NCBI GenBank assembly: GCA_017654855.1
Contig: CM030337.1
Coordinates: 3,968,001 to 4,032,000, forward strand
Direction of reading: 5' to 3'
Source of the DNA: Podospora anserina
Taxonomy: Eukaryota
DNA: 64,000 bases
Each line of letters opens with the position of its first letter. The first letter of the stretch is position 1. The notes beneath the pieces are model-generated. The model worked only from the letters and a program-made list of their open reading frames with translations. It did no database searches and was not told where the DNA came from. Below are positions 17,951 to 53,521 of this stretch, piece after piece. The translations under genes were made by a program, and so were the position numbers.

Positions 17951-19113
17951 TCATTCAGACTCGAAAATGACAGCACGCTTGGCCAACAGCGCTTCTTCTT
18001 CTGGGCGAATCAATTCGACCCGCAAATTCACAACTGCCCAGCGATAAGGCATAGGCCATTCCAGACGTTCATGATGTATATGTTGTCCAGTTCTCTTCCA
18101 AACTCTCCTGTTTACCATCCAGACCACACGTCTTATCAGGCTGTAAAGGTCGCTGGCACTAAGGAGAATATCGCGAGCCTGGTAGGGAAGTTGGCTTTTG
18201 TGCAGGCTCAAAGTTTCCTCAAGAACCCAATTAGCGACCTCTGTCCGACACTCATCGTTTGTGCAATACGATCCACGCGTTCCTCGAAGGGCATCGGGTG
18301 TCCTGAGGTCACGCTGCAGTGTTGTGTGATAAGAATCTAACAGCGTCTGGATTTTTGAGAGACGAACTTTGGCGATCCTCTCTGTGACACCTACCTTGTT
18401 AGCATGAAACTTTGCGCGACTGCCCTCGACTACGCACAGACAGGTGACTCGCCTTCCATATCAAGAGGACCAAAACGTAACTGGCGGAGCGGCGTCTTAT
18501 CCCCCTGGTCATTGTTGAATACCAGGACTCTGCTTTGCGGATCGATCCAGCAATGGTACACAATTTGAACAGTGTGAGCTCTGAAGACTCTCGAGAAGCC
18601 CAATTGCCAGGATAGAAATGCCTCAAACGGGCACCACCTGATGTCTTTGTAACCCTGCCACTTCACTTCCCCATTTCTTCCAAAGTCTACCAACGTGTGC
18701 TTCCACGGCGCGAGCAAGTGAGTCATTTGGTACTTGTCAGTGAGAAGCAGCAAGCCGTAGACCGCTTTCCTTGTCATGAGCTTCCTGGGGATCCTCCTGA
18801 CATGGAATTGGCAGTGGACGATTTGCAGGATGATTTCAAAGTCATCGGGGTCGTCCTCTGGCAGCGAAACCAGCCACTGCTCGCCTGCAGGTTTGGACTC
18901 TGCCGAAGGACCGAATAGCATTGCCTTGAATACTGGGGATGCACGGCGAAGGGCTGCCGGATCGACTCTGAAAGTGCGGGGGGTGGGGTCCGAGTCGGCT
19001 CCGACATGGAGAACAAGATCCCCGTCTGGATCGATTTCCTCGATGTGGAGTTTGTTGATGTCGACTGGCTTTGTGACATCAAGGCCTTCATCGGCGCTTT
19101 CCGGGGGCGACAT
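17951..19113 (-). CDS. BTB/POZ-domain protein A (apparently intact; GC-AG intron 18452-18391)
   Basis: IDPDGDLVLHVG, FRVDPAALRRASPVFKAMLFGP, LPEDDP, LLTDKY. Splicing joins the ORF to the 17951 stop in frame. Confidence 0.8.
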
Positions 19114-19569
19114 GATGACTTGTTGAGAAGCTCTTTTGTTGACTTTGGCACGAGAAAGAGAAGAGATCTGGATTGTAACTCCCGGATGAACATTGTGCGG
19201 AGATCAACGCAAGGTTCTGGAAATCGTGTCATTAACTTAAATTTTGGGTTGGCGTTGTGGCTCTGGGTGGCTTGAAGAACGAGGCAAGCTTCAGTTCAGT
19301 GGCGTAGAAAGGGCGTGACGCTGTGGGTTTAGCCAGCTGTCAAGACACTACTGTACGATCTTGTGATGGTGCGCGAGCCTCCATCTTGTCATGGGTCGAC
19401 AGTGTGTCTGCGATAATACGCAAAGGTCGGGTCCTGTTGTGCAGCAGCAAATGCCGCGGTCATGTGGCGTTGCTCGTTCAATACAGTTTTCGACATCCAA
19501 CCTAATAAGATGGCATGGGTTTTTTATAATATAAAACTCGGGTGGCTGTCACATATTTAACCAGTTGAG

Positions 19570-20518
19570 CACCGCTGCCTTTGCAGGTCTCCTGTGTTCA
19601 AGGCCATGCTCTTTGGTCCTTGGAAAGAGTCAAGCCCAGCAAATGGATCAGACTGGACCGTCACATTACCAAAGGACAACCCTTGTTGATTTTAGGCTCA
19701 TACTCAACATCGCACATGGCAATTTTACTGGTGTGTCAAGAGCCATCTCGTTTGGCGAAGAGCTTTACAACCTACTCATCCTTTGTGACAAATACGACCT
19801 GACAGCGTTGATCGGTCCCTGGGTTAGGATGTGGCTTCTCCTGTTTCACATTCAGCATGTGATGCCAGTACCAATGCTGCCATTCATCGTCTGGGCAGTG
19901 GGTGATTACAACCTTTTTATCACCATCTGCTGGCATATTGTGGAGAACTCCAAGGTTGACAAAGATACCGGTGGCCTCAGCTACAAGGGTCAACTGTTGT
20001 GCAACTACCGGCTTGGTTCGTTTGATATGGAAGTTTGGTACATCCATGAACCTATTGATACTGGTTAACTATCCTCGCTAACTGATATTCCGTCTCTTGC
20101 AATAGAGAGACTCATCCAACTAAGAGTCGAGCTCAATAGAGCGTGGATCACGCGGGCCTTTAAGGAACAGAGCGCACGTTTTCATCGCTACATGCTGGCA
20201 TCGAAACATTCCTTTAACAAGGGCGCGGGGGAGGTTGTGGTCGGTGTGAGCGCTCTGGGGGCGCGAGTTGGGGAATTGCTGGATTGGATGGCAGAGGGGT
20301 TTTATACTATCGTGAAAGAAAGTACTCGTGATCGTGTGTGGCCGGAGACTCTGATTGGAAACTGGAATTACGACAAACACTGGACTGTACGATGGGGAGG
20401 TCGTCTTGTGTCACCAGAGGACAGGGAATGGATGAACAATCGCAAGCGACGGCTTGAAGCCTATAGTATCCCTGAAAATAGTACTCACCTGAATTTGACT
20501 TTCTTACCTACTGCATGA
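19570..20518 (+). pseudogene. BTB/POZ paralogue B, 5'-truncated and frameshifted
   Basis: SPVFKAMLFGPWKES in one frame and WTVTLPKDNP* in another. ILNIAHGNF, LYNLLILCDKY, IGPW, WAVGDY and RLGSFDME follow in the 19565 ORF frame. No DGDL N-terminus. Confidence 0.7.
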
Positions 20519-20791
20519 TACCTTACCACATGCGAATTCATACCTGCTACACCGCGACAGGCAATGAGGTTAGGTAGAATCGCAGGTTGCTCCCGTCCCC
20601 TGTTGGCTTGATTGCTGTGAGTGGCCCACACAAAGTGGGAAAGAGCGCCGTCAAAACTAAAGCATTCACTCGCAGCCCTCATCTTCTGCCCAGAGATTTC
20701 CCCCTTGCAGCCGAAGCGACCTCCCGCAAACCTGGGTCAGGCTACATCTACCAACTCAACAACAACACCTCACCGACCAGATCGATCCAAG

Positions 20792-22114
20792 ATGTCGAGC
20801 GATCCAATCGGACTTACCGAGGGTCCTGGCAACCCGGTCGAAAAAGCCGTCGAGAACCAACAAGAAGCTGGCAACCAAGGAAAAGGTCGGACAAGCGAGG
20901 CCGCCGCTGTTGAGAAGACCGTTGCGCCTGCGACTGTTGTCGGCAAAAGCCCCGTCGTCGAGAACATTGATGAGGATGGCGATCTTGTCCTCCATGTCGG
21001 CCCCACTTCAAACCTGAGGGCATTCAAAATCGACTCCTCTACTCTTCGCCGCACCTCTGAAGTCTTCCGAGCGTGGATTTGCCGCTTGAGGACCGACAAA
21101 CCGAGCGATTCACAATGGGTATTCGACCTGCCGGAGGACAACCCCGCCAGTCTCAAAACCATCCTCCATATTGTCCACGGACAGTTTGACCAAGCCACAA
21201 AGACCATGGCGGAGAGCGACGGCAGTATGCTATACGAGCTGCTGGTGCTTTGCGACAAATATAACATGGCCTACATGATCAAGCCCTGGGCTAATGCATG
21301 GCTCAATCGCACCATCAAAGACACGCAAGATAAGCCCAGCTACTGGAAGCTTGCATTCATTGCTTGGGAATTAGGACGTTATGATCTATTCACCGAGAGC
21401 TGTCAAAATATCATCCTTACGTCCCAGGCTTCCCATGATGGAAGCGGACTAGTGGCCTATGGATGCCAGTTGGGTGATTGTCGCCTTGGCCCTCTCGAGA
21501 TGGAAGGTTTGTGCATGGTGGTGTTCATTAGCCGTTTCGTACTGCCGACTAACAGAAGAACGATAGAGAGATTCGAACCGATCAGATACGCGATTATTCA
21601 AGCCCTACTCGACTTCTACCACACTGAGGTCAAGGATCGTCTGCTTGGGAAGGTCCCTACCCACAGTCCCGTTCAACCTACTGCATCTCACTCTGTAGGG
21701 AGATCACCAACCCTGTCATTCGACAACACTCGCCAAACCTCATCTCGTTCCCCAATGACCAACACCGCGTGCAATCAGATTGTTCTGGGGGGCATCATCC
21801 AGGCCACCGTGACGCTACTACGGGGCTCAACCAAAACCGAGAATATGGACGCTGGAATCTTGGTCCTTCTTCCCACTGAGGCATCTGAGCTCAAGGATAG
21901 CCCTGCCAAGCTCATTGGACAGATGACTACTATCTTCCAAGCCGTTCAGCCATTGGGATATGGTCACGAGATCTGCCATCCTGCAGCCAGGTTTCTGTCT
22001 TTTCAGAAAACCATCAAGGAGTTCACGGCAGAGTGTAATAAAGGATGGGAGGGTCTGCTGTTGACTCCAGCGGATAAAGACAGACTGGCCAAGAGAAAGG
22101 TGCTCTTTGGCTGA
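20792..22114 (+). CDS. BTB/POZ-domain protein C (apparently intact; in-frame 60-nt intron 21507-21566)
   Basis: IDEDGDLVLHVG, FKIDSSTLRRTSEVF, LPEDNP, ILHIVHGQF, LYELLVLCDKY, IAWELG, RLGPLEME. Confidence 0.82.
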   Translation: MSSDPIGLTEGPGNPVEKAVENQQEAGNQGKGRTSEAAAVEKTVAPATVVGKSPVVENIDEDGDLVLHVGPTSNLRAFKIDSSTLRRTSEVFRAWICRLRTDKPSDSQWVFDLPEDNPASLKTILHIVHGQFDQATKTMAESDGSMLYELLVLCDKYNMAYMIKPWANAWLNRTIKDTQDKPSYWKLAFIAWELGRYDLFTESCQNIILTSQASHDGSGLVAYGCQLGDCRLGPLEMEGLCMVVFISRFVLPTNRRTIERFEPIRYAIIQALLDFYHTEVKDRLLGKVPTHSPVQPTASHSVGRSPTLSFDNTRQTSSRSPMTNTACNQIVLGGIIQATVTLLRGSTKTENMDAGILVLLPTEASELKDSPAKLIGQMTTIFQAVQPLGYGHEICHPAARFLSFQKTIKEFTAECNKGWEGLLLTPADKDRLAKRKVLFG

Positions 22115-22425
22115 GGCATTGTTCTTCGTATATAGGCCTTGTTCTAGATAGGTAGTTAAAACGCCTCTTGATCGTCTTGTCAAGTCTCCCGACTATCTCT
22201 AAAAGCCGATCAGCTATATTGTCAGACTTTGAGTCTCGTTGAATGTGTGTGCTGCCTATCTTTGAGGGAACCTTGTACAAATATTCTTGAGGGCCTATTC
22301 ACTCTCTTCATAGCTATGTAAATATCTTCAAAGACGTGATGACTAGGTATTTTTAAAGGCGTAGTCTGTATCTTTATAGAACTAAAGATTGTATCTAAGG
22401 TCTTTTGCCTATCTTTAAAGGTATA

Positions 22426-24304
22426 ACGTATATTATAAGCGAGTCGTATATATAAGCGAGTCGTATAGTCTCCACCACCCTACAACAACTATCCTCAATT
22501 ATACCGCAACAACATTAGGAAGCAACTACAATTATATCAGAAACGGCTGAATGAGATGATTCCCCAGCCTCCTGGCAAGTGCGCGCGTTATGGCCAGGCT
22601 TGCCGCACACACCACAGCACCGAACCGTCGTACGAGCCCCCCCTGCACTACCGCCATCCGGCTGTATTTCTTCCACTACCTCCCCACCCACGGCCTTCTG
22701 GTTTAGTAGATCCTGTACATCTTGCACAGTAAGTAATCCTCCGAGCCGTATACGTATTTTTTTAGCTCTCCGGCGCTTACTTAGTGCCTCATTGGCCTTA
22801 CGGAGCGAAGAGACCTCTGCCTATAAGAGGGCCACTTAGTATATTACAGTTATCGTACCCTTAATAAATTAATCTATAGCACCTAATATTAAAGTCGGGG
22901 AGCTATTTTAATAGTTAGTAATGCGAGTCTTAATAAGCGTTAAATGTAAGTTAGCTTTTCGGGGGCTTTATAGTGTTTAGAATATTTAAGGGAGTACCGT
23001 ACCCGGCCTTAAAGATAAGGGTATTAGCGTATAAAGCTTTATATTTAACTTAGAAAGTACCCTCTCTAGATCGTATAGTATAAAACTAATACCTATAAAG
23101 CTACCCTATATATTCTTCTCCGTTATAGAGGCGAAAAAAGCCTTATGGAAAGTATAAAGAAATTCGAGCTTACTTATATAGTTAATATATATACGTATTA
23201 AGCCCTCGATCTAGCGGCCGTACGCTTATTTTAGCGGCCTAAAGTAGCTAATATTAAGTGGCTAGAGGAAGTGGGAGGAGTATAGAGGTATATAAAGCGT
23301 AATAATATTATTCTATTAATAATAACGCTTGAATTTAATTAAATAGTAACTTTCGTAGCTATCGAGGATTAATAATTAGTATTTACCCTTCGTACGGGAT
23401 ACTATATAATAATCGAAATACTTAATTTAATTTAGGCCTACCGGATTAATAGTTTAGTTATTATTGGTAGTTACGATATATTAAGTAAATAGTAAATTAT
23501 ACTCGGTATATTAGTTAGTAAAGTAATATTATACAGTTAAAATAATAAAGGGCGGGATAGCCCAGTTAAGGGTATTAACTCCCTAGATTATTATTACTTA
23601 CTCGCGGTTATTAAGCTAAACTAGTTTTACTTTACTAAAGCCGTCCGAGATTATAATTACTATACTTACGAAAATAATATTTATTATAAACTTAGTCTCG
23701 TCGAAATTATAAATATTATTATCTATAATACCGTACTTAGCTTTAGTATTCCGTACGAGCGTAAACTACTCGGTAATAACCTTCGGATCCTCGTACTTAG
23801 CCCTTTAGTAATTGTATTTACGCGTAAAACGCGTACGGAGCTATAGTTAGCGTTTAACGAAGTTATGTGCCTAGAGCTTGCCAATAGGGGGCGCGTCGCG
23901 TACGCGTAGCAGTTGGTTGGCCATATCTTCTACACCACGTAACCTTGGTGGAAAAGCTCGCGTAGATAGCTCAATAATATAATAAATAATAGCCTCCTCT
24001 TCGGATTGAGTAAGCTTCTTCGATCTGGGCGTAGTATCGCGTCGTGCAGGCCGGCCGGCGCGTCGGTTAGAGAGAGTCATAGGTGGTACGTTGTAAAGCT
24101 TAGCTACAGCTTGGAGGCTTAATTTTTCGTCCTTTTGGAGAGCCTCAAGGGCTAAGAGTATCCTGGCTTCCTTTGAAGTAGGAGGCATGTTGGGTTGTGG
24201 AAAAAATTGATGTTAGGTGTAAGGAGGACGCGTCGTGGTGGAGACTGTACGACTCGCTTATATGTACGACTCGCTTATATGTACGACTCGCTTATAATAT
24301 ACGT
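22426..24304 (-). mobile_element. Fot1/pogo-family DNA transposon, RIP-inactivated
   Basis: TA target duplications at 22424-5 and 24305-6. TIRs ACGTATATTATAAGCGAGTCG... with internal direct repeats. Transposase N-terminus MPPTSKEARILLAL (24188) and C-terminal zinc knuckle CGVCGKPGHNARTC. The centre is TpA-rich with many stops. Confidence 0.93.
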
Positions 24305-24622
24305 TATTAACAATCTTCAAGGGCGCTTCGAATATTTTAAAAGGCCATCGACTGTATTCAAAGTCTTTAGACTACCTTGGCTATTCATCAAAGTGTTTGG
24401 CTATCCCTCAGCCCTTTATATCTCATTACATAAGATACATCAAGTTACACATGCCATCACTTCACCAGACATTTATCCCAGGCCTATCCCGCTTCCCCTG
24501 CATCACCTTAAACAGATTCGTCAAACTACCCTTGCCATGATGTTCAACACACATTGGTCCCAAACCTTTCCCGTTTCCTTTGAATTATCTCAATGTGGTC
24601 CTTACTGAGAAGGTTCTTCGTG

Positions 24623-25330
24623 TCAAACTGAAAGCCCGTGTGACACACCGCGACTGAAACTCATACAGGAAAGGTGGATTTCCGAAGTCTTGATGGGAAA
24701 TTTGAGATCCGCCCGGCTGAAATGAAGGGAACCCATGCGACGAAGCCCGCCAAAGATAGAAGCATCGCAGAGCTCCCTGCCCACGCTGGCAAAGGTTTGG
24801 TCCCCACTGTCGATGTTCCTCTTACAAACACGGCTGGTCGTGTAGGCAACCACCGTTTTGTATATCAAAGCTGCTAGGTCGTTCAGCACCAGCAACCGCT
24901 TCGCTGCAATATGCTCAAGCATATCAGTTGACAGAGGACCTATGTGGGCATGGTCGGCCAGGCATATGGCCTCATATGTCACTTTGTTGGTTGAGCCAAG
25001 GTTGGAATGGAGGATTATGTTTTTGAGAAACTGGGCGAAGGTGTCGGCATCTCCAAGTTCCCAGATTGAATGTTAACGCTGAAAGACCGTTAAGGATGCT
25101 GGGGAGTCTGTGGAGGTGGCAAGAGTCTTTCTCATGGGCGTCACCCACGGGGTCAAGAGGTGTATGATGTCATACTTTGTCGGCCAGATTCTTCCACGGC
25201 TTATCTGCAAATATGTCTGAATCGCGGCTGAAACATCATCATGCTTCAATGTAAACGTACCGTCAACAGTTGATGACTGGCGTCGTGGTCGAAGGTCGTG
25301 GTGGTGGACCAGGTGGTGGGATGACACGAA
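24623..25330 (-). pseudogene. BTB/POZ paralogue D remnant
   Basis: KYDIIHLLTPW and IGPLSTDMLEHIAAKR...LCDASIFGGL match the middle and C-terminal family motifs. Frameshifted, and the BTB N-terminus is lost. Confidence 0.6.
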
Positions 25331-25811
25331 GGCAAACAGGTGGGTGTTGACTGGAAGTCAACAAAGTGGCAGTGGGTTGCGGAAGGGGGTGACTCGCTCT
25401 TTCCTATTCCATTTGTGCTGGGCCCTAGAAGACAGCAGAACGATTCAATTCCTTCTTCCGAGCAAATCCTTCCGGCACGCCGCCTGTGGGGGTCCTACAA
25501 GATACCAACCTTTCACTGGCTCGGTCATTCAGACCGTTCGCCTCCGTCAATCGTCGACTTAACGGCCGATTCCGCTTGTTTGCCTTCTATTTGCTGCCCG
25601 AGGATAGGTCCCGGAACACTTGGTTTGGCGTGAAAGCAGCTTCCCGTCCTCGATCTGTTTGCCCATTTGCTAACAAAAATTGATATTGGCCAGGTCTCAG
25701 CGGGCGTTTACGTTAACTTTCAGACACCCGCAAAAACTGGTTCTCTTTTTCGCTCATTCCCACCTCTTACCTCCAACACCACCCACAACTCATCAACCCA
25801 AGGCCGTCGCT

Positions 25812-26451
25812 ATGGCTTCAGTTAAGGCGACATAATCTGGGGAAAGACGGCCGACAAGTCGCAATCAAGATCCCCTTATTCTCGATCATGACGGGGACGT
25901 TATGCTCACCGTTGGAAAGCCCCCAAAGGACAAGCCATTCAAAGTTGATGCATCAGCACTACGACGCGCTTCTCCGGTGTGGAAATCTATGCTGTTCGGG
26001 CCATGGGCCGAATCAAATCGAACTTCGTCTTTCTGACACAACCCCCGTGAAGAACGGTCAGCACGCGTGGCTGCTCAAAAGTAAGGCTTGTGATGACCTT
26101 CTTCTCAGAGGTATCATTCGAGGCACAGCACAAGGACTCCAAGGCACTGTACACCCCAGAGATGCCACGAGGTTCCGCATCAGTGTCGAAAGTCTGGAAA
26201 GCACTTGCTCAGCTGTCTTTGAGGGCCTAAAAGCCCGCGCTCATGTGATCAATGGCAGCTGGGATGGGTACAATTCGAGGTACGGTTCAGCCTCATCACA
26301 CGATACATGCAACCCATCCCAACGGTTTCGCGATTTCGCATCCAAGACCAGGACAAAGGCGCTGTCCAAGATTGATGAGATATTGCAATCCGATGACTAC
26401 AAGGGAAGGATGAAAAAACAGCGTGAGAAAATCGGATTGAAATCTTTATGA
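25812..26451 (+). pseudogene. BTB/POZ paralogue E with internal deletion
   Basis: Frame not shown in the ORF track reads ILDHDGDVMLTVGKPPKDKPFKVDASALRRASPVWKSMLFGPWAESNR then stop. It jumps directly to C-terminal motifs (ACDDLLLRGII...RMKKQREKIGL). Confidence 0.75.
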
Positions 26452-27058
26452 ATCCATGAAGGTACCAATTCAGCCTAGGTAGTTCTGCCATTGTTTCTTC
26501 GTGAAGGCAAGCTCAACGGGCTTGACATAATTCCATCCTTATTCAGTTAACTTTGAGTGTAGTCGACTCTGAAAGCTTTGTAGGCGGGTGGGTCTTCAAA
26601 TCTCTCAGCGAGGCATCTTAATTGTACCTTCCTTCGACCCCTCGCGTCAATCTTAACTACCTTTTGCACATCACTATGCAGTTGCCTAGGCATGAATCTA
26701 GGTTTCTCCTTCTGCACACTGACAAAGAAGCAAAAAATTGAGAGCCCGGGCTTAATTCTTTTCTCTCTACATTTTACTTCCACCTTGGCCTCGCTTACTT
26801 CTTAACCACATCTCCCCTACACTATCCTTCCAATATTCTACTAAACCCCATCTCCAGGCAGAGGTACGACCGTGAGGCACTGAGAAGCTTTGAGGGTAAG
26901 TGAATTACACCTGATCTTATATATACTTACAGGCACTGATTTATTGTGAAAAGAGCCGGTAATCAGGGCTTGGAACAGTAGTTCAATTCAATTAATAATC
27001 TTTAATGGCCTCGAAGTAAGTAATAAAGAAAGGTAAAATACTAAAAAATATAACAGGG

Positions 27059-27338
27059 TGTGATAAACCCCTATTCAGAACCTCTAAAAGGGATACTAGT
27101 TAAAGGCGCTTTTAGACAATCTAGTGTGGTGCAGCTAAATAGTGCACAACAATGGCTTATTTTAATTACAATAGTAAATATACTAACGAATGTAACTTGT
27201 ATTACATACTGCGGAACTATCTGCTTCTTTTACTTCCCTTACTCCCCTCGGCCTCCTATATAAATAGTTTTTCGCTGGTGGGCCAAATACGAAGTGTGTT
27301 GTTTCGTTAATATATATAATAAAAGGCCGATTGTTACA
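27059..27338 (-). repeat. LTR (solo or fragment), conserved half plus distinct variable half
   Basis: TG...CA ends. Shares the AACCCCT...AGAACCTCT..AAGGGATA...CATACTGCGGAACTATCT core with other LTRs. No target-site duplication seen. Confidence 0.65.
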
Positions 27339-27569
27339 GTCTAGAAGTTAACGGTCCACGGTCCTTAGGCTTATGTATATACGAAGGAATTAGCTAGTGT
27401 AAATAGATAGTTCTGCAATATGCAATATAAGTTACAATCGTAGTATTTTAGCTATTATAATTAAGATAAGCTATTTATTATATACTGTCTAGCTATACCG
27501 AACTAAAACTGTTTAAAAGTGCCTTTAACTAGTATCCCTTTTAGAGGTTCTGGATAGGGGTTCGTTACA
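27339..27569 (+). repeat. Truncated LTR, same subtype as 28445-28843
   Basis: Ends GGGGTTCGTTACA. Its 5' part matches the reverse complement of GGACCGTGGACCGTTGAC. Confidence 0.65.
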
Positions 27570-28214
27570 AAAATAAAGAAAACTAATTAATATATTTATA
27601 AGTAAAAAAATAAAAAAATAAAAAACAATTTTAAAATTAAAATCGACGGCACTTTAATATAAAAGGAAGAGTATTATATTATAATTAAATTAATAAATAA
27701 AACGATTTATATACGAAGTACAATATATATTAAAATAGTGAGAAAACACACAAAATAACTATAACACTATAAATATACCTTTAATAGGTTTCAGAATAAA
27801 TACACTTACGTAATAGTAACTCGCTCGCAGGCCGCACTTCACGTAAGACAAAGAAAAAACACTATAGGCTCGCAAGCTATATAATAAGCACCGGATTAGC
27901 CTGATTAGAGGGCCAGAATTGCCTGCACGCGTGCAAGGCACAAAATATAAAGAAAAATAAAAGTCGATGATCTGTCTAAAATAGAATGTCCGAAGCAAAC
28001 TACTTATATACATGGCCCCCCTAAACCCCTGAGTCCTCTAAGCGCCCCGCTTCCTTACTTATACTCTTAGGCCTATAGCCGTACCCTAAACTAATATAGC
28101 TAGTCGTTAGTAGAACTAATTAGGATAAAAAATAGCTTTATTTATAAGATTTTTATTAAAAGTTAATAATTTAGCGCGGGATTATTACTAAAGGATAAGA
28201 ATTTAGAAGACCCG

Positions 28215-28417
28215 TAAGTTTATATAGACGGAGAAATAGGCTATTGTAAATAAATAGTTCTATAGTATATAATATAAGTAATAATCATTAGTATTTTAAT
28301 TATTGTGATTAAGATAAGCTATTTATTATATACTGTTTAGCTATACCGAATTAGGATTGTTTAGAAATGCTTTTAACTAATATTTTTTTTAGAGGTTCTG
28401 GATAGAGGTTTGTTATA
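28215..28417 (+). repeat. Heavily RIP-mutated LTR conserved half
   Basis: TATATAGACGGAG...GAGGTTCTGGATAGAGGTTTGTTATA is a transition-mutated copy of the conserved LTR core. Start approximate. Confidence 0.6.
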
Positions 28418-28444
28418 ATAATATAGTAGATATAAGTAGGTAAC

Positions 28445-28843
28445 TGTAACGAACCCCTGTATAGAACCTCTGAAAGGGATATTGGTTGAAGGTAACTTCT
28501 GACAATTAGTTCGGTGTAGCTAAACAGTGCACAATAAGATATCTCGATATAAATATAAGATGCCGTGAATACAACTGTGAATTGCATACTGCGGAACTAT
28601 CTATCTACACTAGCCAGTTCCTCCGTATATATAGACCTTAGGACCGTGGACCGTTGACTTACAGACGGTCCTCGGTCCACTCCTGATTGGCCGATACTGG
28701 ACCGTGGACCGTGAGCCCCGCCGCGGTCCCCGGTCCCTATCTTATTGGTCCGTTCCGTCCACTCGGACCGTGAGCCCCGCTCGATCGCTCGGTCCAGTCC
28801 TGATTGGTCTCTCGTGGCCCCACTGTCTTCCAGAACCGTGACA
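28445..28843 (-). mobile_element. Solo LTR, 399 bp
   Basis: TGTAACG...GTGACA termini. Flanks GTAAC/GTATC give a 5-bp TSD with one mismatch. Confidence 0.85.
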
Positions 28844-36073: not shown

Positions 36074-36197
36074 ATTGTGAAGCGAAGATGTGGTGTTGAT
36101 CAAAGACTCATACACAGCGTGTATACATAGAAAAGAACAGATATAGTAAGGAAAGACATAATGGTAGACAGCACCTTAATACAAAACAACACTTCAG

Positions 36198-39100: not shown

Positions 39101-41704
39101 TGGGCACGCCAGTCGAGCCACTGGTGTACAGGACGATGGCCTCATCGGAAGGTTTTGCGTGGTAGAATCCATTGAAAGCACCAGAAAAATTGTCAAGGCT
39201 GTTGATGTCCAGGATGACCGGTTGAATAACCAGTGGTTCGTCTGTAAATATCTCTGTGCAGAGGGTGCGGGTGGTATGGTGAATTAGAACAGCGGCGAGG
39301 TCGGCATCACGAACAATCGACTTGAGTCGCCCAGCTCCTTGTGTGGCTTCGAGAGGCACATAGCTCCCGCCAAATCTCCAGATCCCGAGCATGGAACAAA
39401 TCCAATCGATGGTTGGCTCTTGAAGGACTCCGATTCTCGATTCTGGTACCACGTTTGATGACATGGAAAGTGCGTGAGCAATCTGGGTCGACCTTGCCAT
39501 CATGTCTTTATAGGAAACCATGGACCCTTGGGTATCATTGAGCGCAATTTGCTGAGCACGCTCGGCCGATATACTATCGAGTTGACTGATCAACGAATCA
39601 AAGTCCATGTCGAGGCTGACTCCCTGGCCGAGCTTGGTCGCGTCTTGAACAGCAACGTCGCTGAACATCTGTGGCGCTCGGCCCGAAAGATGAATGTCAT
39701 CAGTGAATGCTTCCATGAGATTAAGAAAGCAATCGAGCAAGATTTGCGCTTCCTGTTGAGTGTAAAGCTCTTTCTGAACCATGATCGCGATCCATGGATC
39801 ACCTGCCGGCGGATTAATGACAGCCAACATAATATCGTATATCGTCTCTCCAATCTCGTAATTGCTGTTCTTGATCGTGCCATCAGCTCCGAAGGGCCTG
39901 TCCTCTGCGACTGGAATGTAGTTGATGAAGGCTTGGAACAGCGGGCTGTGAGAAGGATGGCGAACAGCACCGACCTCATCAAGCACGACGTCAAATGGGA
40001 CAGCCGAATGTTTCAGCCCGGCCAGTGCCTTGGTCTTGTTCTCTTGGAGGAGGTCGACAAAAGGTTTGGAGAGATCTGAACGCAGTCTCAGTGCGAATAA
40101 GTTCAGGAAGATACCGATGCTGTCCATAGATTCTGCATCATTCTGCCTGTTTGCACTGGCAACACCGATGCACACATCATCTGTTTGGGCCAGTCGACCG
40201 AGGAGGATTTGGAGGATGGTGAGGTACAGGACGAAGGGGGACTGAAGATGGCCTTGTTTGCGTAGCTCTAAAAGCTTGGTCGTGATTGCGGGCTTCAGCC
40301 TGGTTTCAGCTCGCACATGGCGGTATGTCGTTCTTATAATTGGTCGTGATGATCGAACTGTGGTATTTGGCGACATCGGAAGAATCGGCAAGATCTCTGG
40401 AAGGTCTTCAAACTCGTTTTTCCAGAACAGTATATCCTCTGTATGCTGTCCTGCCTCCAATCTCTCACGCTGTCGCGTAGAGAACTCGTTTTGCTGAAAT
40501 GGTGGCGGCAGGAGTTGTCCCCTGTAGGCCAGCCTTATGTGTTCAGTCAAGGCCAGCATGCTCATTCCATCCATGTTGATGTGATGGTAACCAACGATGA
40601 GGTGATGTCGGGTTGGAGACTCAGCAAGTAGCAAAAGACGGAGAAACTGGCCGTGGGTGATATCATACACGTGTCTGTTGAGGGACTCGATCTCTGAGCG
40701 AACTTGTGCCGGGGATGTGATGGTTTTGGTTTCCAAACGAAGTGGAGATTTGCTCAGAACCCCCTGAAAAAGCTGGCGAGTCTCCGGGTCAGTGAAGAAG
40801 GCAGTTCGGAGCCCTTCATGTTGCATAGCCATCTCATCGACTATCCGCGAAAGTACCTCAACATCGAGCTTGGTTTTAGTCGTGATCAGGAAGGTGACGG
40901 TGCCATTGAAGAATGTCGGGTCCTCAACAAGCTGGGTCATAAACCAGAAGCCGGACTGACCGTATGACATTGGAAGAGTCTTGAGAACTTTCGGTCTAGA
41001 AGTCTGGTTGGCACTGGCGTTGGTTGGTGTATCTGAATAGGAAAGGCCCGTGGCAGGCAATGCTGGACGATGAATCGAGCTCCTCAAACAAACGCAGCCA
41101 AGTGAATTGAGCTGTTTGGCCACATTTTCGCTGTCGGCATTCCTGCTCCGGATTCGAAAGCTGACGAAGTCAGTTCTCTCTCCGTCTCGCTCATGACTAC
41201 CCGTAGACTGGAGCTCCAGTTCAAGGCTAATCTTGTCCTCTTTCTGTCCCAGAGTAATATCCTGCTGGAGATGAAATTCGTCGAGTTCGAATTTGCGTAG
41301 AATCCTTGGGTTTAGGAATAAGAGAGACGCCTCGGCGACCAGTTTGACATAACCGACGACTGGAAACAGGATCGGAAACAACTCTTCATGGTGGCCTAGG
41401 CGAGAGAGGAGCTCAGAAATAACCAGTGTATTACGCCAGGTGACGCCCGGTCCGAGTGGATCAGGCACCGCGATGCCCAGCAACGGGTGAGCATGGTTGT
41501 AGACAGAGGCTGACATGTTGTCAGATCAAGTGATGGAGAGAGTGGGTGGGTAGTGGCATGAGTGAGCTCTCTACCTGATACAGGATATCGCAAGGCGTGC
41601 TCCCCTGCCGTACCTATATACCTGTTCTTCTGGCTTTTAGCTGTGGCTGACAGTACCAGACAAGGTGAAAGTGATGTCTCACGGGGTGAACTGGAAGCAT
41701 CCAA
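36198..41704 (-). CDS. Monomodular NRPS derived from a PKS-NRPS hybrid: partial DH-C-A-T-T-R (probable intron 41574-41510)
   Basis: DH-like HPLLG...WRN...HH...FP..GYV. C domain HHINMDG. A domain YTSGSTGVPKG, NAYGPAE, SGDRG, QVKLRGQRFEL. Two T domains FFLVGGNSLL. R domain TGATGFLG, YILSK. Confidence 0.88.
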
Positions 41705-42351
41705 GCGAAAGCATGGTGCTGAGGTGAGACCTCGGGAGTGCTTAGTTCCAGTCAGATCCTACTGACGAGGGATCTTATTAGCCAAACTCAACCCCATGAT
41801 GTGCGCCGCTCACCGAAGGACTCGCCCGGTTAGGTCAGAGTATGAGTCGAAAATACCCCGAGCATCGTGTTGCTGAGTAAGGCTCTAAATTTGTGATCCT
41901 TGGCGTGCTCAGGCATTCCCTGTCATGGTGGTGGGGCCGAAGAGTCCCGATGGTTTGTTCAAAGCAATTTGTGTTACGGAGCACTTGGATCAGTCATCGT
42001 TGTTGTGATCTGAAACACAAGAGATGAAGAATGGATGTGTAGGTGTCGGCGCATGGAGCAGGATGATTATGAATGCAGATCCCATGATGGTCGGAATCAT
42101 TGTTTTGGCGCAGATCTACCAACACACGTGTGGACCGCTCAAATGGATTTTTTCTCCACACTTCAAACACTTCAAAGCAGATATTTTCAACTCTCCTCTT
42201 GAAGTAGTGTCGAATCATCAGCCGTGGCCTTTTTCGCTTTATTTTTATCCCCACAGATACATTTGCCTCATCATGTCTGACATCGACTATTACATGGACG
42301 TCAACGACAACATCTCAGAATGTCTCAAAACGTGTTATCAGGAAGAGATTA

Positions 42352-44211
42352 ACGTGTATGATAAGCGAGCGACGCAGATAAGCGAGCGACGCACTCTCCA
42401 CCACAACGCGTCTCTTCAATATCTTCTACTACAATTCACCACCAACAACCATGGACGGCCCTTCAAAAGAAGCGAGACTTCTTCTTGCCCTCGAAGCTAT
42501 TCAAAATAAGGAGGATCTTAGTATCCGCACTGCAGCTAAGTTATATAACGTCCCAAAAGCAACCCTCCGCTATAGGCGTAATAGCCGACCAATACGACGC
42601 GATATTCCGGCCAACTCACGTAATTTAACGGATCTGGAGGAGAAGACGATAGTTCAGTACGTCCTTGAGCTATCTGCACGCGCTGTCCCACCTAGATTAA
42701 GTGGTGTGGAAGATATAGCCAACCAACTGCTACGCGTACGCGACGCGCCTCCTATTAGTAAACGCTGGGCCTATAACTTTATTAAACGCTAGCCACAGTT
42801 CCGTACGCGTTTTACGCGTAAATATAACTATTAGAGGGCTAAGTGCGAGGATTTAAAGGTTATTATTAAGTAGTTTATATTTATACGGAATACTAAAGCT
42901 AAATATAATATTATAAATAATAATATTTATAATTTCGACGAGATTAGGTTTATAATAAATATTATTTTGTAAGTATAATAATTATAACTTTAAATAGCTT
43001 TAATAAAGTAAAATTAGTTTAGTTTAATAACCGCGAATAAGTAATAGTAATTTAAAGAATTAATATTTTCGGTTAGACTATCCCGCCCTTTATTATTTTA
43101 ATTATATAATATTACTTTATTAATTAATATACTAAATATAATTTATTATTTATTTAATATATTATAATTACCGATAATAATTAAATTATTAATCCGGTAA
43201 ATTTAAATTAAATTAAATAGTTTAATTATTATATAATATCCCGTACGAAAAGTAAATACCGGTTATTAATTTTCGATAATTATAAAAATTACTATTTAAT
43301 TAAATTTAAATATTATTATTAATAAAATAATATTATTACGCTTTATATATCTCTATACTCCTCCCACTTCCTTTAATTATTTAATATTAATTATTTTAGG
43401 TTACTAAAATAAATATATAGCCGCTAGATTAAAAGCTTAATATATATATATATTAATTATATAAATAAACTCGAGTTTCTTTATACTTTCCGCGAAACTT
43501 TTTTTGCTTTTATAATAAAAAAAATATATAAAGTAGCTTTATAGGTACTAGCTTTATACTATACGATCTAAAGAAAGTACTTTTTAAATTAAATATAAAG
43601 CTTCGTACGCCTATACCCCTATCCTTAAAGCCGGGCACGGTACTACCTTAAATATTTTAAATATTATAAAACTTTCGAGAAACTAATTTATAATTAACGT
43701 TTATTAAAATTTATATTATTAATTATTAAAATAGTTTCCCGACTTCGATATTAGTTACTATAAACTAGCTTACTAAGGGTACGATAACTATAATATACCA
43801 GGTAGCCCTCCTTTAGTTAGAGAACGCTTCGTTCCGTAAGGCTAATAAAGTATTAAATAAATACCGGAGAGCTAAAAAAATACGTATACGGCTCGGAGGA
43901 TTACTTACTGTGCAAGATGTATAGGATCTACTGGACCAGAAGGCCGTGGGTGAGGAGGCAGTGGAAGAAATATAGCCGGATGGCGGTAGTGCTAGGGGGG
44001 CTCGTACGAAGGTTTAGTGCTGTAGTGTGTGCGGCAAGCCTGGCCATAATGCCCGCACTTGCCAGGAGGCTGCAGAAGGGTCTGATTTAGCTGTTTCTGA
44101 CGTAATTGTAGTTGGTTCTTAATGTTGTGGTCTAGCAATTGAGGATAGTTATAGTAAGGTGGTGGAGAGTGCGTCGCTCGCTTGTCTGCGTCGCTCGCTT
44201 ATTATGCACGT
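42352..44211 (+). mobile_element. Fot1/pogo-family DNA transposon, RIP-inactivated (second subfamily)
   Basis: TA TSDs at 42350-1 and 44212-3. TIRs ACGTG.AT.ATAAGCGAGCGACGCA.... Transposase start MDGPSKEARLLLAL at 42451 and CCHC knuckle near 44020-44060. Extreme TpA bias internally. Confidence 0.93.
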
Positions 44212-44612
44212 TATAGACCCTGATGGCGACCTTTTTCTTCACATCGGCCCTGCCTCTCACAGAGAGATGGGAGGCACAGGGGAACTGTCAGAAAGCGTGA
44301 CGCGCTTTCAGGTCTGCTCGGCTACGTTACGACGCGCATCACCGGTTTTCCAGAAGATGCTATATGGCCCTTGGTTTACTTCGAAACCGTTCGATCCCTG
44401 CGCGAAATGGATTGTGGATCTACCTGAAAATGATAACCATGCCATGGGGGCAGACTTGGCTATCCTTCATAGCCTGTTCGAAAAGATCCCTCTTTGTGGA
44501 AGGTCTGAAGGTGAAAGCAGAAGCACAACCGCACCGTATATCCCTCTTTTTGAGGTAGATTTGGAATTAAATTAAATTATTATTTTAAGCCCTAACATTT
44601 AAGCTTTCTTAT

Positions 44613-45092
44613 TGTCATAGACCAACCATGTAGCAAGGCAGAGTGGAGACTGCAGCCGGCCGTAGTGGCTAATCAAGTGGAATATAACGACGGGGCTGCA
44701 GGACAGTGGGGCGCTCACCTCTTGGCAGAAGTGAGCCGTGGTGAGCCAGGTATAGAGGTACCTAGAGGATTAAGATCTATATATACGGAGGAACTGGCTA
44801 GTGTAAATAGATAGTTCCGCAGTATGCAATTCACAATTGTATTCACGGTATCTTATATTTACATTAAGACATCTTATTATACACTATTTAGCTACACCGA
44901 ACCAATTATCAGAAGTTACCTTTAATTAATATCCCTTTCAAAGGTTCTGTACAGGGGTTCGTCACAAATTATTAAAAGTTATTTTTAACTAGTATCCATT
45001 TTAGAGGTTCTATATAGAGATTCGTTACAAATTATTAGAAGTTACTTTTAACTAGTATCCCTTTCAGAGGTTTTATATAGGGGTTCGTCATA
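44613..45092 (+). repeat. LTR (44613-44966) followed by two further tandem copies of its terminal ~63 bp
   Basis: TGTCATAG...GGGGTTCGTCACA. Repeat units AATTAT.A.AAGTTA...TTCGT.A.A end at 44966, 45029 and 45092. Confidence 0.75.
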
Positions 45093-45209
45093 ATATTTTA
45101 ATAAACTTAAAAACTTTTAGATTTACTTATAAAGTTATTATTAATTTAAAATTATATATAATAAATCGAAAGTAAAATAATATATTAATTTATTAGTCGG
45201 GTAAATTAT

Positions 45210-45650
45210 TATGACGAACCCCTATACAGAACCTCTAAAAGGGATACTAGTTAAAGGTAACTTCTAATAATTAGTTCGGTGCAGCTAAACAGTGCACAAC
45301 AAAATATCTTAATATAAATACTAAATACCGTAAATACAAGCTGAATTACATACTGCGGAACTGTCTATCTACACTAGCCAGTTCCTCCGTATATATAGAT
45401 CCTGGGGCCCTGAGGTGCTCGCCCTGCTACGGCCCCGATTACCTATAGCACATTGTATCCTGCAAAGTGCTTGTCGTGCTATGCCTCTGATCACTCGTAG
45501 CATCTTGCATCCTGCAGAGTGCTCGTGTGTCTTGGCGCCATAGCACTTTCGTCCAGCCTTGATTGGCTATCTCCTGACTCCTCTAATGATTGGCTAGAGA
45601 CGTCCTACGCCCCACATGTGGCGCGGCCTGCTGTTGGGTTAACTGTGACA
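45210..45650 (-). mobile_element. Solo LTR, 441 bp
   Basis: TATGACG (RIP-altered TG)...TGTGACA termini with a perfect ATTAT 5-bp TSD. Confidence 0.88.
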
Positions 45651-47124
45651 ATTATAGTTTAATTATTATTTATTTAAACGTTAAAAGTATATAATTAAAA
45701 ATAAAATAAATAATTAAATATTCTATATTTATTAAAAGAATATCGATTCTTTTAATATACTAAAGGTTTTAGTAGTAATTTAAAGCTATAGGGTATAGAC
45801 TACTAAGTAATAAGTAAATATACGTCTTTTAGATCTATTTATATTGTTAGGTTTCTTTTTCTTTACTAAAGGTTTTCAGGCCATTAAAGATTATTAACTG
45901 AATTGAATTGCTGTTCCAAGCCCTGATATCCAGCCGTTGTCACAGTCCAGCCATTTCTGAACAAATGGATGACATGTATCTCAAAGAAGCGGGTGCGATA
46001 TCCATACGACAAGCGCTGAATGATCCATACAGCATGGCTTGTCGAAGATGAGCCCGTCCTTGCCTCAGAGCTACATGCATTGGCAATGCATTCCTCGCTT
46101 AACGATCATGGCGATTTGATGTACTCCTCCAAGCACAGGAAGGAATGGGATCATGTCCTTCATAGCGACACCTACTACGGCGTGGACGACGTTGAACCGC
46201 TTTGGGAGCGGGATGAAGATGAATTCTGCGTGGGAGGTAAGTAGAGCCTCACAGGGTCTCCTGCTTCTGATGTTCCAGGAAGGATACTGACCGTACTCTT
46301 TACAAACACCCACAGACCTTGTGAGCAAAGCCTGTGATTCCGCACTTCAAACAGTTCTCGACTTCCACCGCGATGAGATTTCGAAAAGGATAAAACGCTC
46401 CGGGTTATGGGATACCCTCATACTCGGCATACTCCAGCAGCGGGAATTCAGGATCATGGGATATCTCAGACGTCGCCTGTGGGGAAACGCCGGTGAGATG
46501 CCGAAGCATACATTTAACTACCTTCTCAGCCTTCTCGAGTCGCGGATCTACAGCAACAAGTCCCATGCCACGCTCGCAGCCACGAGACGTGCGGCCCGAT
46601 TGAGGATTTTCAAAAGCTGAAGAGAAAGCTCTTGGAAGACGTCGAGTACCGGAAGACGTTGCTCTTCACCGACGAGATGAGAGAGGATGCGAAGCGGCAG
46701 CGGGTGATTTGGTTCGGCGTTGAGAATCCGAGGTGATGGAGCGGAATAATCATAATAGCCTATATAATCCTGTAGTTACAAAGTAATAGTTGTGTGTGTT
46801 GTATGGTTCGGTCATTACAACCATCGGCCAGTGACGTCATGGCCCATGCACGCGCCGTCCGCACAGTCTAGCCTTTGTGGCCCAACTCTATTTATGCGCA
46901 ACTGAATATGTCGAAGACAGTGGCTACCCATACGAATAAGAGATGGTCATCATAGAACCAAACACCTGCCACCCCAGAAACATGTGGATTCAAGCATCGG
47001 CGGGTTTAAAGCTGTACATGAGACAGTGCGTTAGGTGCAATGCTTTGGAATCGTGCGGTCCACCAACCAGCTGCTGCGGGCAGACGTCCCCAGACAAAGA
47101 TAGACAGCTGCTTGGGATAGGACT

Positions 47125-51393: not shown

Positions 51394-51832
51394 GTTGCCG
51401 ACTTTTTGGGTTCACTTTAGAGTCCAAGCCAGGCAGGACATTTTGGCGGTGCATTCGAGTTCAGATATAGATTTTCAGCATTTGACTGGTTTGTGCGTGT
51501 GCCCCAGTTGTGTCAGACGATGGAATCATGGATATTGACATACCTACATCAACTGTGCCAACAGAAATTGAATCTTCGGTTGCGGATAAATCTTGGGTGG
51601 CCATCTCCCCACAAAAGCAATTTCCAAGTGCCGCCCGTTCCTGCCGAGCGCTGTTGACTAGCAGCAGAGTATTATTTGGAGAATTTGCTTCCGAGCTTTT
51701 TCTGCGGTTGGTGGCTTCATGTTAACCCCATTGGTGCGCATCTACAACACATAGCCTGTCATATTCAGTATTACGTGGCCAAGGAATTGAGGCTAGATTT
51801 CTGTTGTTCTTACAGTACAAATACATCTTCAG

Positions 51833-53521
51833 TCAGGTGTTGAGAGTAAGCCGACGCTCTGAGGTGGTCTCTTCATCTCCTCCTTCATCCTCTTCCCACT
51901 CTGCATCCTCTTTCGGGCCATCCACTTCTTCATCCTCCGTAACTGGACCAGGATCCGGAGGCACAAGCACTTCGGGATCATCCGTGATACTAAGAAACTT
52001 TCTTCTCGCTTCCAAATGTGACCTTTCTCCCGCCCTTAGAACGGTGTTTGTAGTACGTCGTCGTGGGCTCGAATCACCAGGCGAGATATCATCAAAAGTT
52101 GAGGAGGAAAACGTTATATTGCTAAAAGAAGAGAATTACCCTCCAAAGCTGAGCAAAGCCTATAAATTATCGTCCTCCACCAATCCCCACTTATCGCCCC
52201 ACATGTTCCAACACCCTATATTATATCGAAAGGAGTTTTCAAACTGCTCAAAGTAATGCTTGGGTGTGCAGCGCTCGTGACCAGGCATGTATGTGAACCT
52301 GGAAGAGTACTCAACCTGCAGTTTCAAAATGGTTGTTCAAGCTTTTCCCTGGTGGTAAGTATGTTGTCTCCTCGAGCCGGGTCGTCTTTACTGGCTGGGT
52401 CGAAGTTCCCGATCCCGTCTTCTGACCATTTCTGGGGTATGCTGGAGAGGAGGATAGCGTCACACTTCAGTCCAGCCTTTCCTCCATCAGCATCCGACGG
52501 AGAAGACTCGTGACAATGACCCTTCCACTTTCCTGGGGCGATTCTACCAAAGGTCTCATCTCTGAACCCTACACAAACGGCCCCGCTCGAGGGACTCGGA
52601 ACGGTTGCTATCTATGAGCTCTGGAATGAGGTCAATAACGCTGGAAAAGATGGCAACAAACGGGCTGGGTAGTACATACCTGGAAGGTCCGGCAGTCCAC
52701 AGTCCATTTCTCCTGGTGTTGTGAGCAAGAGACCTAGATCTCAGTTGTCGTCCTCGGTTCTAAGCAACCACTCTTTGATTTCCTCGTTTTGGGATTGGCT
52801 GGTGTCTCCAGACCTAGTCTGCTGTTCCGATCCTTCCTCTTTTGTTGTAGCTGCTTCCTCGCTTCCACTTTGCTCGACCTGATTGGATTCAGCAGGAGCT
52901 GGGACAAAACAAGCTCGATGAAGTCTTTCAACTGCATCAAATACAACTTCTCAACACCCAAGTTCCAGTCAATACGCATCATCCACACTCTTTCTTCTGT
53001 CCTTACCTCTTCTTCCAATCTGTCTCGTATAGCCTTGAGCCATCGCGAAACCCAGGGGCCGAGCTTCCGAGATAGGGCGTATTTGTCCGCCAACACAAGG
53101 ATGCGGTACAATTCCTCTGTCGACGGAGATGAAGGAACAGATTCAAAATTGCCGTGCGTGATATGGAACAGGGTTTGCATATCGCAGGGTGAGTCCTGAG
53201 GCAATGACACGGTCTCCAAGACAGACTGGATGAGGAAGATGGCTTCCATGATTCTGCCCAGAGTCCTCCAAATAGCATCGCCTTGAACGCCGGAGAAGAC
53301 CGCTGCAGGGCTCAGGAGCACACATGAAAGTTTGTTGGGTTTTGGATTCTAGGGCGCTGCCGGTGCGCAGTATTAGATCGCCATCCGGGCGACCAAGACG
53401 GTTGTGACCCCTTCGATATGGGGCTCCCGCAGTTGATGGCGTTGGTGTCGTAGCATTGACATTTTGTGAAGTCTGTTTTTCTTGAGATAGAAGGAGAAGA
53501 GGAATCTGGTAAGCGAGTCAT
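51833..53521 (-). pseudogene. BTB/POZ paralogue G, frameshifted and rearranged
   Basis: PDGDLILRTG, SSPAFKAMLFG, LPQDSP, HITHGNF, LYRILVLADKY, LGPW and WNLG occur across shifted frames. Two C-terminus-like segments near 52800 and 52010. Confidence 0.7.

Follow-up and report, generated by a model that had tools for sequence, protein, structure and literature searches.

An ancient, eroding array of BTB-domain genes, likely Cullin-3 adaptors, on chromosome 6 of Podospora anserina

Does a gene cluster in which most members are broken belong to a family that is still turning over, or to one that is being lost? This question is raised by a 64-kb stretch of chromosome 6 of Podospora anserina (assembly GCA_017654855.1, contig CM030337.1, positions 3,968,001 to 4,032,000 of the forward strand; hereafter the window), in which seven loci of one BTB/POZ family, designated A to G, lie close together. 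An earlier note, made from the bare sequence, had proposed that these loci form a birth-and-death array of ubiquitin-ligase adaptors with variable target-binding ends, acting in nonself or anti-parasite surveillance. The reading that we favour, at a probability of about 0.7, is instead that of an ancient and eroding array of seven paralogs of one large ascomycete family, likely Cullin-3 (Cul3) adaptors. The array of paralogs would have been established before several genera of the Podosporaceae split, and B, D, E, F and G would then have been lost singly, through transposon insertion, deletion, frameshifts, nonsense codons and truncation. In these proteins the BTB half would dock Cul3 while a paralog-specific C-terminal domain would hold the target, and the survivors A and C may have changed function or may be on their way out.

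All seven loci are real, and their positions agree with the coordinates first proposed for them, exactly or to within a few tens of bases. Searches with tblastn, using A and C as queries, recovered B, D, E, F and G with E-values of 4e-14 to 3e-05, and two family hidden Markov models (HMMs), one built from 10 sequences and one from 84, were run on all 2281 six-frame open reading frames (ORFs) of the window. The best match to the 84-sequence HMM was 2.9e-59 for A, 7.6e-24 for B, 1.5e-88 for C, 3.3e-15 for D, 4.6e-22 for E, 7.4e-36 for F and 1.5e-31 for G, and neither HMM found an eighth locus or a further relic at E<0.1 anywhere in the window. On a 365-position family profile, C covers positions 8-364 and A covers 1-215 and 214-310. 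The other copies are patchier, with coverage of 59-90 and 92-215 (two frames) in B, of 124-147 and 166-295 in D, of 21-74 and 235-364 in E, of 22-109, 161-201 and 303-360 in F, and of 31-57, 54-79, 83-185 and 312-345 in G. The motifs by which the family was originally recognised (D.DGDL, LRRASPVF..MLFGP, LPED, DKY..PW and W.LG) are readable in the translations of the copies.

Gene models and annotation agree with the earlier note that A and C alone are intact. Pa_6_10050 (A) and Pa_6_10060 (C) are the sole annotated genes between Pa_6_10040 and Pa_6_10070, and the other five copies are pseudogenes that lack annotation, each with its own kind of damage. The public models of both intact genes are corrected here, that of Pa_6_10050 being truncated at an intron and that of Pa_6_10060 having an intron kept. 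Copy A (17951..19113, minus strand) encodes 371 amino acids once spliced; its exons are 19113-18438 and 18390-17951, separated by a 47-nt phase 1 intron (18437-18391) with the signals GTGCGT...CTAAC...TAG. The ORF at 18430-19113 (minus strand) is 100% identical to PODANS_6_10050 of P. anserina S mat+ over 227 amino acids, and the public 227-residue model stops in the unspliced intron, missing 146 codons of homologous C-terminal sequence. Because exon 2 is homologous to the C-terminal region of the family (hhalign probability 96.2%, E 2.3e-09), the 371-residue model, which the earlier note had already drawn, is better than the public one. Copy C (20792..22114, plus strand) encodes 420 amino acids once spliced. 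Its ORF (20792-22111) is 100% identical to PODANS_6_10060, the public 440-residue model of which retains an in-frame 60-nt intron (21507-21566) that lies in the same place as the intron of A and has splice signals. The orthologs of P. pseudopauciseta (P0002 in our protein set) and Cercophora samala are annotated without these 60 nt, and P0002 has 420 residues, the same as spliced C.

The other five copies did decay by differing routes, as the note had proposed (truncation, internal deletion, frameshifts and insertion of a transposable element, TE), and the lesions can be documented copy by copy. Copy B (19564..20518, plus strand) combines a 5' truncation, a frameshift and a damaged splice donor. 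It lacks about 58 N-terminal profile positions, with homology opening at LCRSPVFKAMLFGPW right after a stop codon (19558-19560); the frameshift falls at about 19684-19690, and the donor (20033) of the intron common to A and C has lost one base, the G that precedes the donor GT in C. Its C-terminal ORF spans 20106-20518. Copy D (24626..25258, minus strand) is a remnant corresponding to residues 124-293 of a 355-residue relative, at 32% identity. It is interrupted by an in-frame stop near 25073 and lacks both the BTB core and the final 60 or so residues. The locus itself was rightly called, and its homology occupies somewhat less than the span of 24623-25330 first given for it. In copy E (25812..26451, plus strand), which retains its ATG at 25812, a nonsense codon stands at codon 8 (25833-25835), and a clean internal deletion of about 170 codons has brought ortholog residues 14-70 (25851-26015) up against residues 241-382 (26014-26448) in another frame (59-63% identity to P0180 from T. 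setosa).

Copy F (42273..46736, plus strand) carries two insertions in addition to frameshifts and a stop. Its codon 26 holds a pogo-like transposon (42350-44213; 1.86 kb, 55-nt inverted ends, TA target duplication), and excising this element plus one TA restores ...YQEEIIDPDGDL..., matching YQQEIIDPDGDL and YQDEIIDPDGDL in the orthologs. The BTB part follows at 44214-44563, a second insertion (an AT-rich repeat) occupies about 44600-45900, and the remaining pieces lie in three frames (45927-46220, with an in-frame stop, 46315-46551 and 46581-46730). F is 59% identical to P0193 of C. samala and could also be aligned to P0074. Copy G (51833..53462, minus strand) is full length relative to a 460-residue ortholog, and is broken by five frame changes, three of them in the N-terminal part of the BTB domain (53388-53210) and the others at 52917 and 52348, and by two in-frame stops (EDDN*DLG and GKA*TT); its three frames are 63%, 52% and 40% identical to P0182. 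The ATG of G lies at 53462 and not at the 53521 originally given, the rest of the locus being as described.

Repeat-induced point mutation (RIP) was considered as a cause of these pseudogenes. The composite indices of all copies lie between -0.57 and -1.13 at near-normal GC content, as opposed to +0.38 to +0.88 for the TEs, and the copies are without mutual DNA similarity that RIP could act on. RIP is therefore rejected for the present, although ancient RIP of the BTB copies stays conceivable.

How old, then, is the array? We built a maximum-likelihood tree with IQ-TREE (52 rows, 363 columns; support as ultrafast bootstrap/SH-aLRT) that included 36 named and 9 unnamed of 223 proteins, chosen for names and full length, and excluded the putative tandem fusions P0035-P0037, P0053 and P0176. 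Copy F groups with P0074 (T. verruculosa) and P0193 (100/100), G with P0182, P0185 and P0080 (100/100), and E with P0180 and P0005 (100/97). Copy A groups with P0008 of C. samala (100/99), to which it is 60% identical, and P0009 of A. backusii is likewise among its nearest relatives. C groups with P0002 (100/100; 90% identity including the intron, 94% spliced) and, more widely, with P0003 and P0004 (100/99); its identity to the C. samala ortholog is 58%. D falls with P0056 and P0141 (98/98), its nearest relatives being unnamed proteins at about 30% identity, and B has no close relative. Of the window copies, only A, B and C form a local clade, and this clade includes orthologs from other genera (100/99). 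The idea of a recently grown array had counted on the copies being each other's closest relatives, and they are not: a single clade of the seven window copies is rejected by the approximately unbiased (AU) test (delta lnL 843.8, p 8.7e-06), and DNA similarity among the copies amounts to patches of 29-44 nt at most.

Even the dead copies E, F and G are represented by intact orthologs in other genera of the Podosporaceae. Because five lineages have such orthologs, the array is older than these genera: lineages A, C, E, F and G predate the split of Podospora, Cercophora samala, Apiosordaria and Triangularia, in which they are still intact genes, and the losses of E, F and G belong to the Podospora lineage. 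In C. samala, the proteins P0003, P0005, P0008, P0182 and P0193 are each encoded on a 185,286-bp contig, three family proteins of A. backusii on a 1,510,130-bp contig and two of T. setosa on a 102,422-bp contig, and the simplest reading is that the array was already present in the common ancestor. Thus, of the birth-and-death process that the earlier note had envisaged, the death is well documented (five of the seven copies are pseudogenes, with lineage-specific loss), but the birth is not, as there are no recent duplicates. Terminal branches are longest for B (1.35) and D (1.16), followed by F (0.65), E (0.27) and G (0.20), and that of E resembles those of its intact orthologs. These lengths suggest that the losses took place at different times, with E apparently the latest.

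Two pairs of copies stand head to head about 450-550 bp apart, namely A (minus) with B (plus), across the gap 19113-19564, and D (minus) with E (plus), across 25258-25812. This arrangement may be the trace of a gene pair that was duplicated in inverted orientation long ago, or it may reflect common bidirectional promoters.

The family evolves fast. The 58% identity of C to its C. samala ortholog compares with about 86% for genic DNA between Podospora and C. samala, while members of the species complex are given as more than 98% identical to one another in the same source (PMC10936905). Within that complex, 25 of the 420 residues of spliced C are not shared with the P. pseudopauciseta ortholog, and the differences are spread evenly (5.2, 5.4, 5.9 and 6.6% in four segments).

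In family members, a divergent BTB/POZ domain is followed by a short helical extension and then by a family-specific, all-helical C-terminal domain. In the BTB core, identity is 63-88% between orthologs of different genera and 40-65% between paralogs; in the C-terminal half, it is 50-68% and 13-26%, respectively. Two Cladorrhinum strains yielded a pair with lower values than the other orthologs, 70% in the core and 40% in the C-terminal half. Judged from these alignments, the C-terminal halves are homologous, specific to each paralog and conserved within ortholog groups, and not hypervariable. The original description is therefore borne out: the BTB family is clustered, its N-terminal half is constant and its C-terminal halves differ by paralog. 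The very strong divergence that was ascribed to the C-terminal halves holds between paralogs but not within ortholog groups. When the C-terminal 181 residues of window copy C were modelled alone, five helices were predicted at a mean predicted local distance difference test (pLDDT) score of 84.1. None of the 82 Foldseek matches of this model in the PDB reached E<=0.001 (best E 2.1), Pfam gave no match for the C-terminal half, and its structural neighbours in the ESM Atlas belong to the same fungal family only, with no named look-alike. Four Cys/His columns of this domain are kept in 72-79 of the 84 sequences, and a metal site at these positions would be a guess.

The family is very large. A profile search of 1.84 billion cluster representatives returned 6584 matches at E<=0.001, 613 of them at E<=1e-30, and the named relatives come mostly from Sordariales and Xylariales, with some from other Pezizomycotina, usually under the labels 'BTB domain-containing protein' or 'hypothetical protein'. 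Pfam barely detects its BTB domain: against PF00651 (cut-off 20.5 bits), A reaches 24.6 bits, four of 10 orthologs fall under the cut-off at 16-20.3 bits, and 22 of the 84 family members match at E<=0.01. We thus face a family of this size, with a predicted C-terminal domain that lacks a solved relative, for which no functional study was found; full-text searches for the gene names, NCU04437, Podospora BTB and fungal BTB/Cul3, with subscription journals and bioRxiv supplements outside their scope, returned no paper on the family or the cluster. Five proteins of other fungi (P0035, P0036, P0037, P0053 and P0176; 426-727 amino acids) contain two or three family BTB units in tandem. These are probably adjacent genes fused by gene prediction, in which case tandem arrays of the family would also exist outside the Podosporaceae, for example in Colletotrichum.

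Expanded and clustered families of BTB adaptors are known elsewhere, the nematode BATH genes being one. It is fair to ask whether the array could be an active birth-and-death family of Cul3 adaptors after all, one whose variable ends track nonself or parasites in the manner of BATH, grass MATH-BTB or fungal NLR genes. The fast evolution of A and C, the 25 differences accumulated by C inside a very young species complex, the lineage-specific losses and the TEs associated with the array would all suit such a family. The array also shares with grass MATH-BTB genes (as described in PMC4091423) and with the BTB/POZ expansion of mushroom-forming fungi (as described in bioRxiv 10.1101/349894) the presence of many paralogs, a constant BTB domain joined to a diverging second domain, clustering and pseudogenes. 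However, those families are described as growing by recent tandem duplication, whereas the P. anserina array is without recent duplicates, contains paralogs that predate the genera, and is shrinking. The AU result, the short patches of DNA similarity and the conservation of the C-terminal domains among orthologs speak against active turnover, as does the modest number of such genes in the genome: BTB genes are not expanded in P. anserina, because its annotation has only 17 POZ-superfamily proteins, Skp1 and elongin C included.

Expression data speak against it as well. In the het-R/het-V incompatibility time course of Bidard et al. (PMC3689799, tabulated values), Pa_6_10050 changed 1.11, -1.4, -1.71, -1.7 and -1.76-fold and Pa_6_10060 changed 1.05, 1.42, 1.05, -1.15 and 1.04-fold, while genes near the array rose 5 to 45-fold. 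For the confrontation with two Serratia species, the fold-change cells of both genes are empty in supplementary file 1 of Lamacchia et al. (PMC4835503). In these two data sets, then, A and C stay within 1.8-fold during incompatibility and are without a differential-expression value for Serratia, and the proposed role in nonself or anti-parasite surveillance finds no support. A parallel within the same genome is provided by the NLR/NWD genes of P. anserina, which, as described in PMC13449251, show the same kinds of decay (stop codons, frameshifts and TE insertions), sometimes polymorphic among strains, and a similar association with TEs. Yet the domains of the array are unrelated to theirs, it shows neither incompatibility induction nor a known link to cell death, and its copies are not RIP-mutated although the flanking TEs are. 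Taken together, we consider an active surveillance family improbable; the nonself-surveillance reading is without support, and on present evidence the array adds no new arm to fungal immunity.

What might the proteins of this eroding array do? An AlphaFold2 model of the C ortholog P0002, computed with 84 aligned relatives, has a mean pLDDT of 83.8 and a predicted template-modelling (TM) score of 0.80, with pLDDT above 90 over most of residues 55-270. The PDB matches that Foldseek listed are BTB domains or BTB-containing chains, mostly from Cul3 adaptors (KEAP1, SPOP, BTBD6, NPR1, KLHL11, KBTBD2 and KBTBD4), plus PLZF. The probability is 0.99-1.00 for all but one of the rows listed, three matches reach E<=0.001, and TM scores by target are 0.5-0.68 for isolated BTB domains. 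The predicted N-terminal half thus has a BTB fold of the Cul3-adaptor type, and the assignment to BTB/POZ made in the earlier note is upheld by the model, which best matches the BTB domains of KEAP1, SPOP and KLHL11. About 148 columns align with KEAP1 BTB and SPOP BTB/3-box constructs, and 147-154 with SPOP BTB/3-box and KLHL11 BTB-BACK. Two helices (184-194 and 197-210) come after the BTB core in the model and, going by the extent of the alignment, would be placed like a 3-box.

The residues at the Cul3 interface point in the same direction. In KLHL3 the main Cul3 contact, as described in PMC3616122, is the phi-x-E motif M83-S84-E85, which follows A77/M78 of helix alpha3, and mutation of E85 abolishes binding; the phi-x-E position is the main Cul3 contact in both KLHL3 and SPOP. 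The family has the consensus A-M-L-F-G-P-[W/F]-x-E-[S/A]-[K/R]-P, with the same spacing from the 'AM' as in KLHL3, and the model places the motif where helix 90-102 ends, ahead of strand 109-113. The phi residue is aromatic in all 84 sequences (W in 45, F in 38, Y in 1), and 80 of them have the Glu; of the four that deviate there, three (with T, D and N) make up the ortholog group of C. Among the window copies, the motif is canonical in B, E and G; F reads W-F-T, A has Ser at phi ('GPSAES') and C reads L-R-T, with Thr in place of Glu. On the strength of the predicted fold and of this motif, the family members are most likely substrate adaptors of Cul3-RING ligases. For the survivors A and C themselves, coupling to Cul3 is doubtful, because both have lost the phi-x-E consensus.

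In its BTB fold, in the reach of the alignment into the helices after the core and in the placement of the aromatic-x-Glu motif, the family resembles KEAP1, SPOP and KLHL3/KLHL11. It is unlike them in that Pfam finds no MATH, Kelch or BACK match in the copies and orthologs searched, in the unclassified five-helix C-terminal domain and in the departure of A and C from the motif.

Several observations weigh against an ancient array of Cul3 adaptors in decay, or loosen parts of this reading. By sequence, no BTB chain of the PDB was found with the family profile or with A as the query, all matches being noise, and C has no Pfam match at all, nor do the other 14 ORF pieces searched. The co-location of the orthologs on one contig per species is read from equal contig sizes only. 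D and B are without a close named ortholog, and their age is read from branch length alone. The 25 differences in C are many for species more than 98% identical, and could reflect positive selection rather than decay. Finally, of eight BTB proteins reported to be co-expressed with Cul3 in Neurospora crassa, strong co-immunoprecipitation is reported for BTB1 only (PMC2996332, as far as that account goes), and therefore a BTB fold is no proof of Cul3 binding. BTB1 (NCU04838) does show that a BTB protein of a filamentous ascomycete can co-immunoprecipitate with Cul3, but it belongs to a set that its authors describe by 'highly conserved BTB domains'. The N. crassa gene given as the ortholog of Pa_6_10050 is NCU04437 (PMC3689799, gene table), for which our full-text search found no paper.

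The BTB fold may serve something other than Cul3 recruitment, such as a self-association scaffold, or a regulator whose Cys/His C-terminal domain binds metal, nucleic acid or a partner. The C-terminal domain is without a relative among known substrate-binding modules in Foldseek, Pfam and the Atlas, its Cys/His columns are widely kept, PLZF-type transcriptional BTB domains occur among the structural matches, and the departure of A and C from phi-x-E, like the N. crassa result, would be easily accommodated. Such a use is possible, if on the unlikely side, given that an aromatic-x-Glu motif is found family-wide exactly at the Cul3-adaptor position and that the best structural matches, aligned over some 148 columns, are Cul3 adaptors.

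Gene order was taken from Pfam matches on the larger ORFs and from Table S1 of Bidard et al. (PMC3689799), and runs Pa_6_10010 (isocitrate-lyase family), Pa_6_10030 (glutamine-synthetase-like), Pa_6_10040 (acyl-CoA ligase), A, C, Pa_6_10070 (phosphoenolpyruvate (PEP)-mutase-like), three genes of unknown function, Pa_6_10100 (nonribosomal peptide synthetase (NRPS)-like, C-A-T-R), a Zn2Cys6 factor, Pa_6_10120 (tyrosinase), and from Pa_6_10140 on. According to the same table, Pa_6_10060 to 10130 have no N. crassa ortholog and the flanks derive from two separate Neurospora blocks (NCU0248x and NCU073xx), and because of this the array is placed in a lineage-specific island: a TE-rich region extending from Pa_6_10050 to about Pa_6_10130, in which most genes are without a Neurospora ortholog. 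Scans for tRNA genes and Rfam families over the whole window gave no match.

Positions 1-17859 hold genes of the isocitrate/methylisocitrate-lyase family, a short-chain dehydrogenase, the glutamine-synthetase-like gene and the acyl-CoA ligase, and in the gene table these are immediately preceded by a 2-methylcitrate-synthase-like gene. With the addition of the PEP-mutase-like Pa_6_10070, the upstream genes look like a small specialised-metabolism cluster. Pa_6_10100 (36198-41525, minus strand), annotated as 'hybrid NRPS/PKS' (PKS, polyketide synthase), consists of C-A-T-R domains preceded by just a weak dehydratase fragment, and a PKS part is absent upstream. One might suppose that the BTB genes are tied to these secondary-metabolite-like neighbours, that is, to the citrate-synthase/isocitrate-lyase/acyl-CoA-ligase block and to the NRPS-like and tyrosinase genes between E and G, as regulators or for self-protection. 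The BTB loci are indeed interleaved with Pa_6_10070-10120. There is no co-regulation, however, as Pa_6_10100 rises 25.8-fold during vegetative incompatibility (Bidard et al. Table S1, PMC3689799) while A and C stay flat; family members number in the thousands, with no sign here of linkage to such clusters, and the neighbouring genes are intact, in contrast to the five dead copies among the seven. We regard such a tie as very improbable.

Pa_6_10130 lies between the tyrosinase gene and Pa_6_10140 (about 51400-55700) and is listed as 4.67-fold induced during incompatibility (Bidard et al. Table S1). Candidates for an overlap with this gene are the G remnant, the antisense serine-rich ORF of G (51726-52256) and a Tc1 transposase. 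Pa_6_10107, too, may overlap a remnant of F or G. The corresponding Tc1/mariner element (53963-55225) adjoins pseudogene G and has 24-nt inverted ends and a RIP index of -0.05; its transposase frame (HTH_Tnp_Tc3_2 and DDE_3) is open for 415 codons from stop to stop (53893-55140), starting upstream of the left inverted repeat. Because it has almost no RIP signature, this element may have been active recently.

A pogo/Fot1-like DNA transposon lies between C and D (22423..24307, no strand assigned), with terminal inverted repeats, HTH_psq remnants and a composite RIP index of +0.87. This copy and the one within F (42350-44213) are mutually inverted and about 1.87 kb long; they end in inverted repeats of 55 nt, are accompanied by a TA duplication, and contain HTH_psq/Tc5 remnants. 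Their size, ends and target site would fit the element Pat. The two copies are 78% identical, with 315 transitions against 89 transversions, enriched at CpT/ApG, the RIP preference of P. anserina as cited in PMC13449251. A second repeat family, which is AT-rich and contains tandem units of 63 nt as well as nested inverted repeats, is present at 26945-28670, between E and Pa_6_10070, and at 44771-45944, within F.

It is tempting to go further and to speculate that these proteins make up a very large, unrecognised class of ascomycete Cul3 adaptors that evolve fast and carry a new five-helix, possibly zinc-binding (Cys/Cys/His/Cys) substrate module. Podosporaceae would then maintain conserved arrays, whose members are lost or rewired as targets change, possibly proteins of mycoviruses, bacteria or selfish elements, and the 6% divergence of Pa_6_10060, including its Cul3-contact motif, would reflect selection and not decay. 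This is a long shot, and quite unlikely on what we have seen; if true, the P. anserina array would be a snapshot of turnover. If erosion is the right reading, the array would instead provide a well-dated natural series of gene death, with five different lesions of different ages and intact orthologs in sister genera, in a model fungus for which 28 strains of the species complex have been sequenced.

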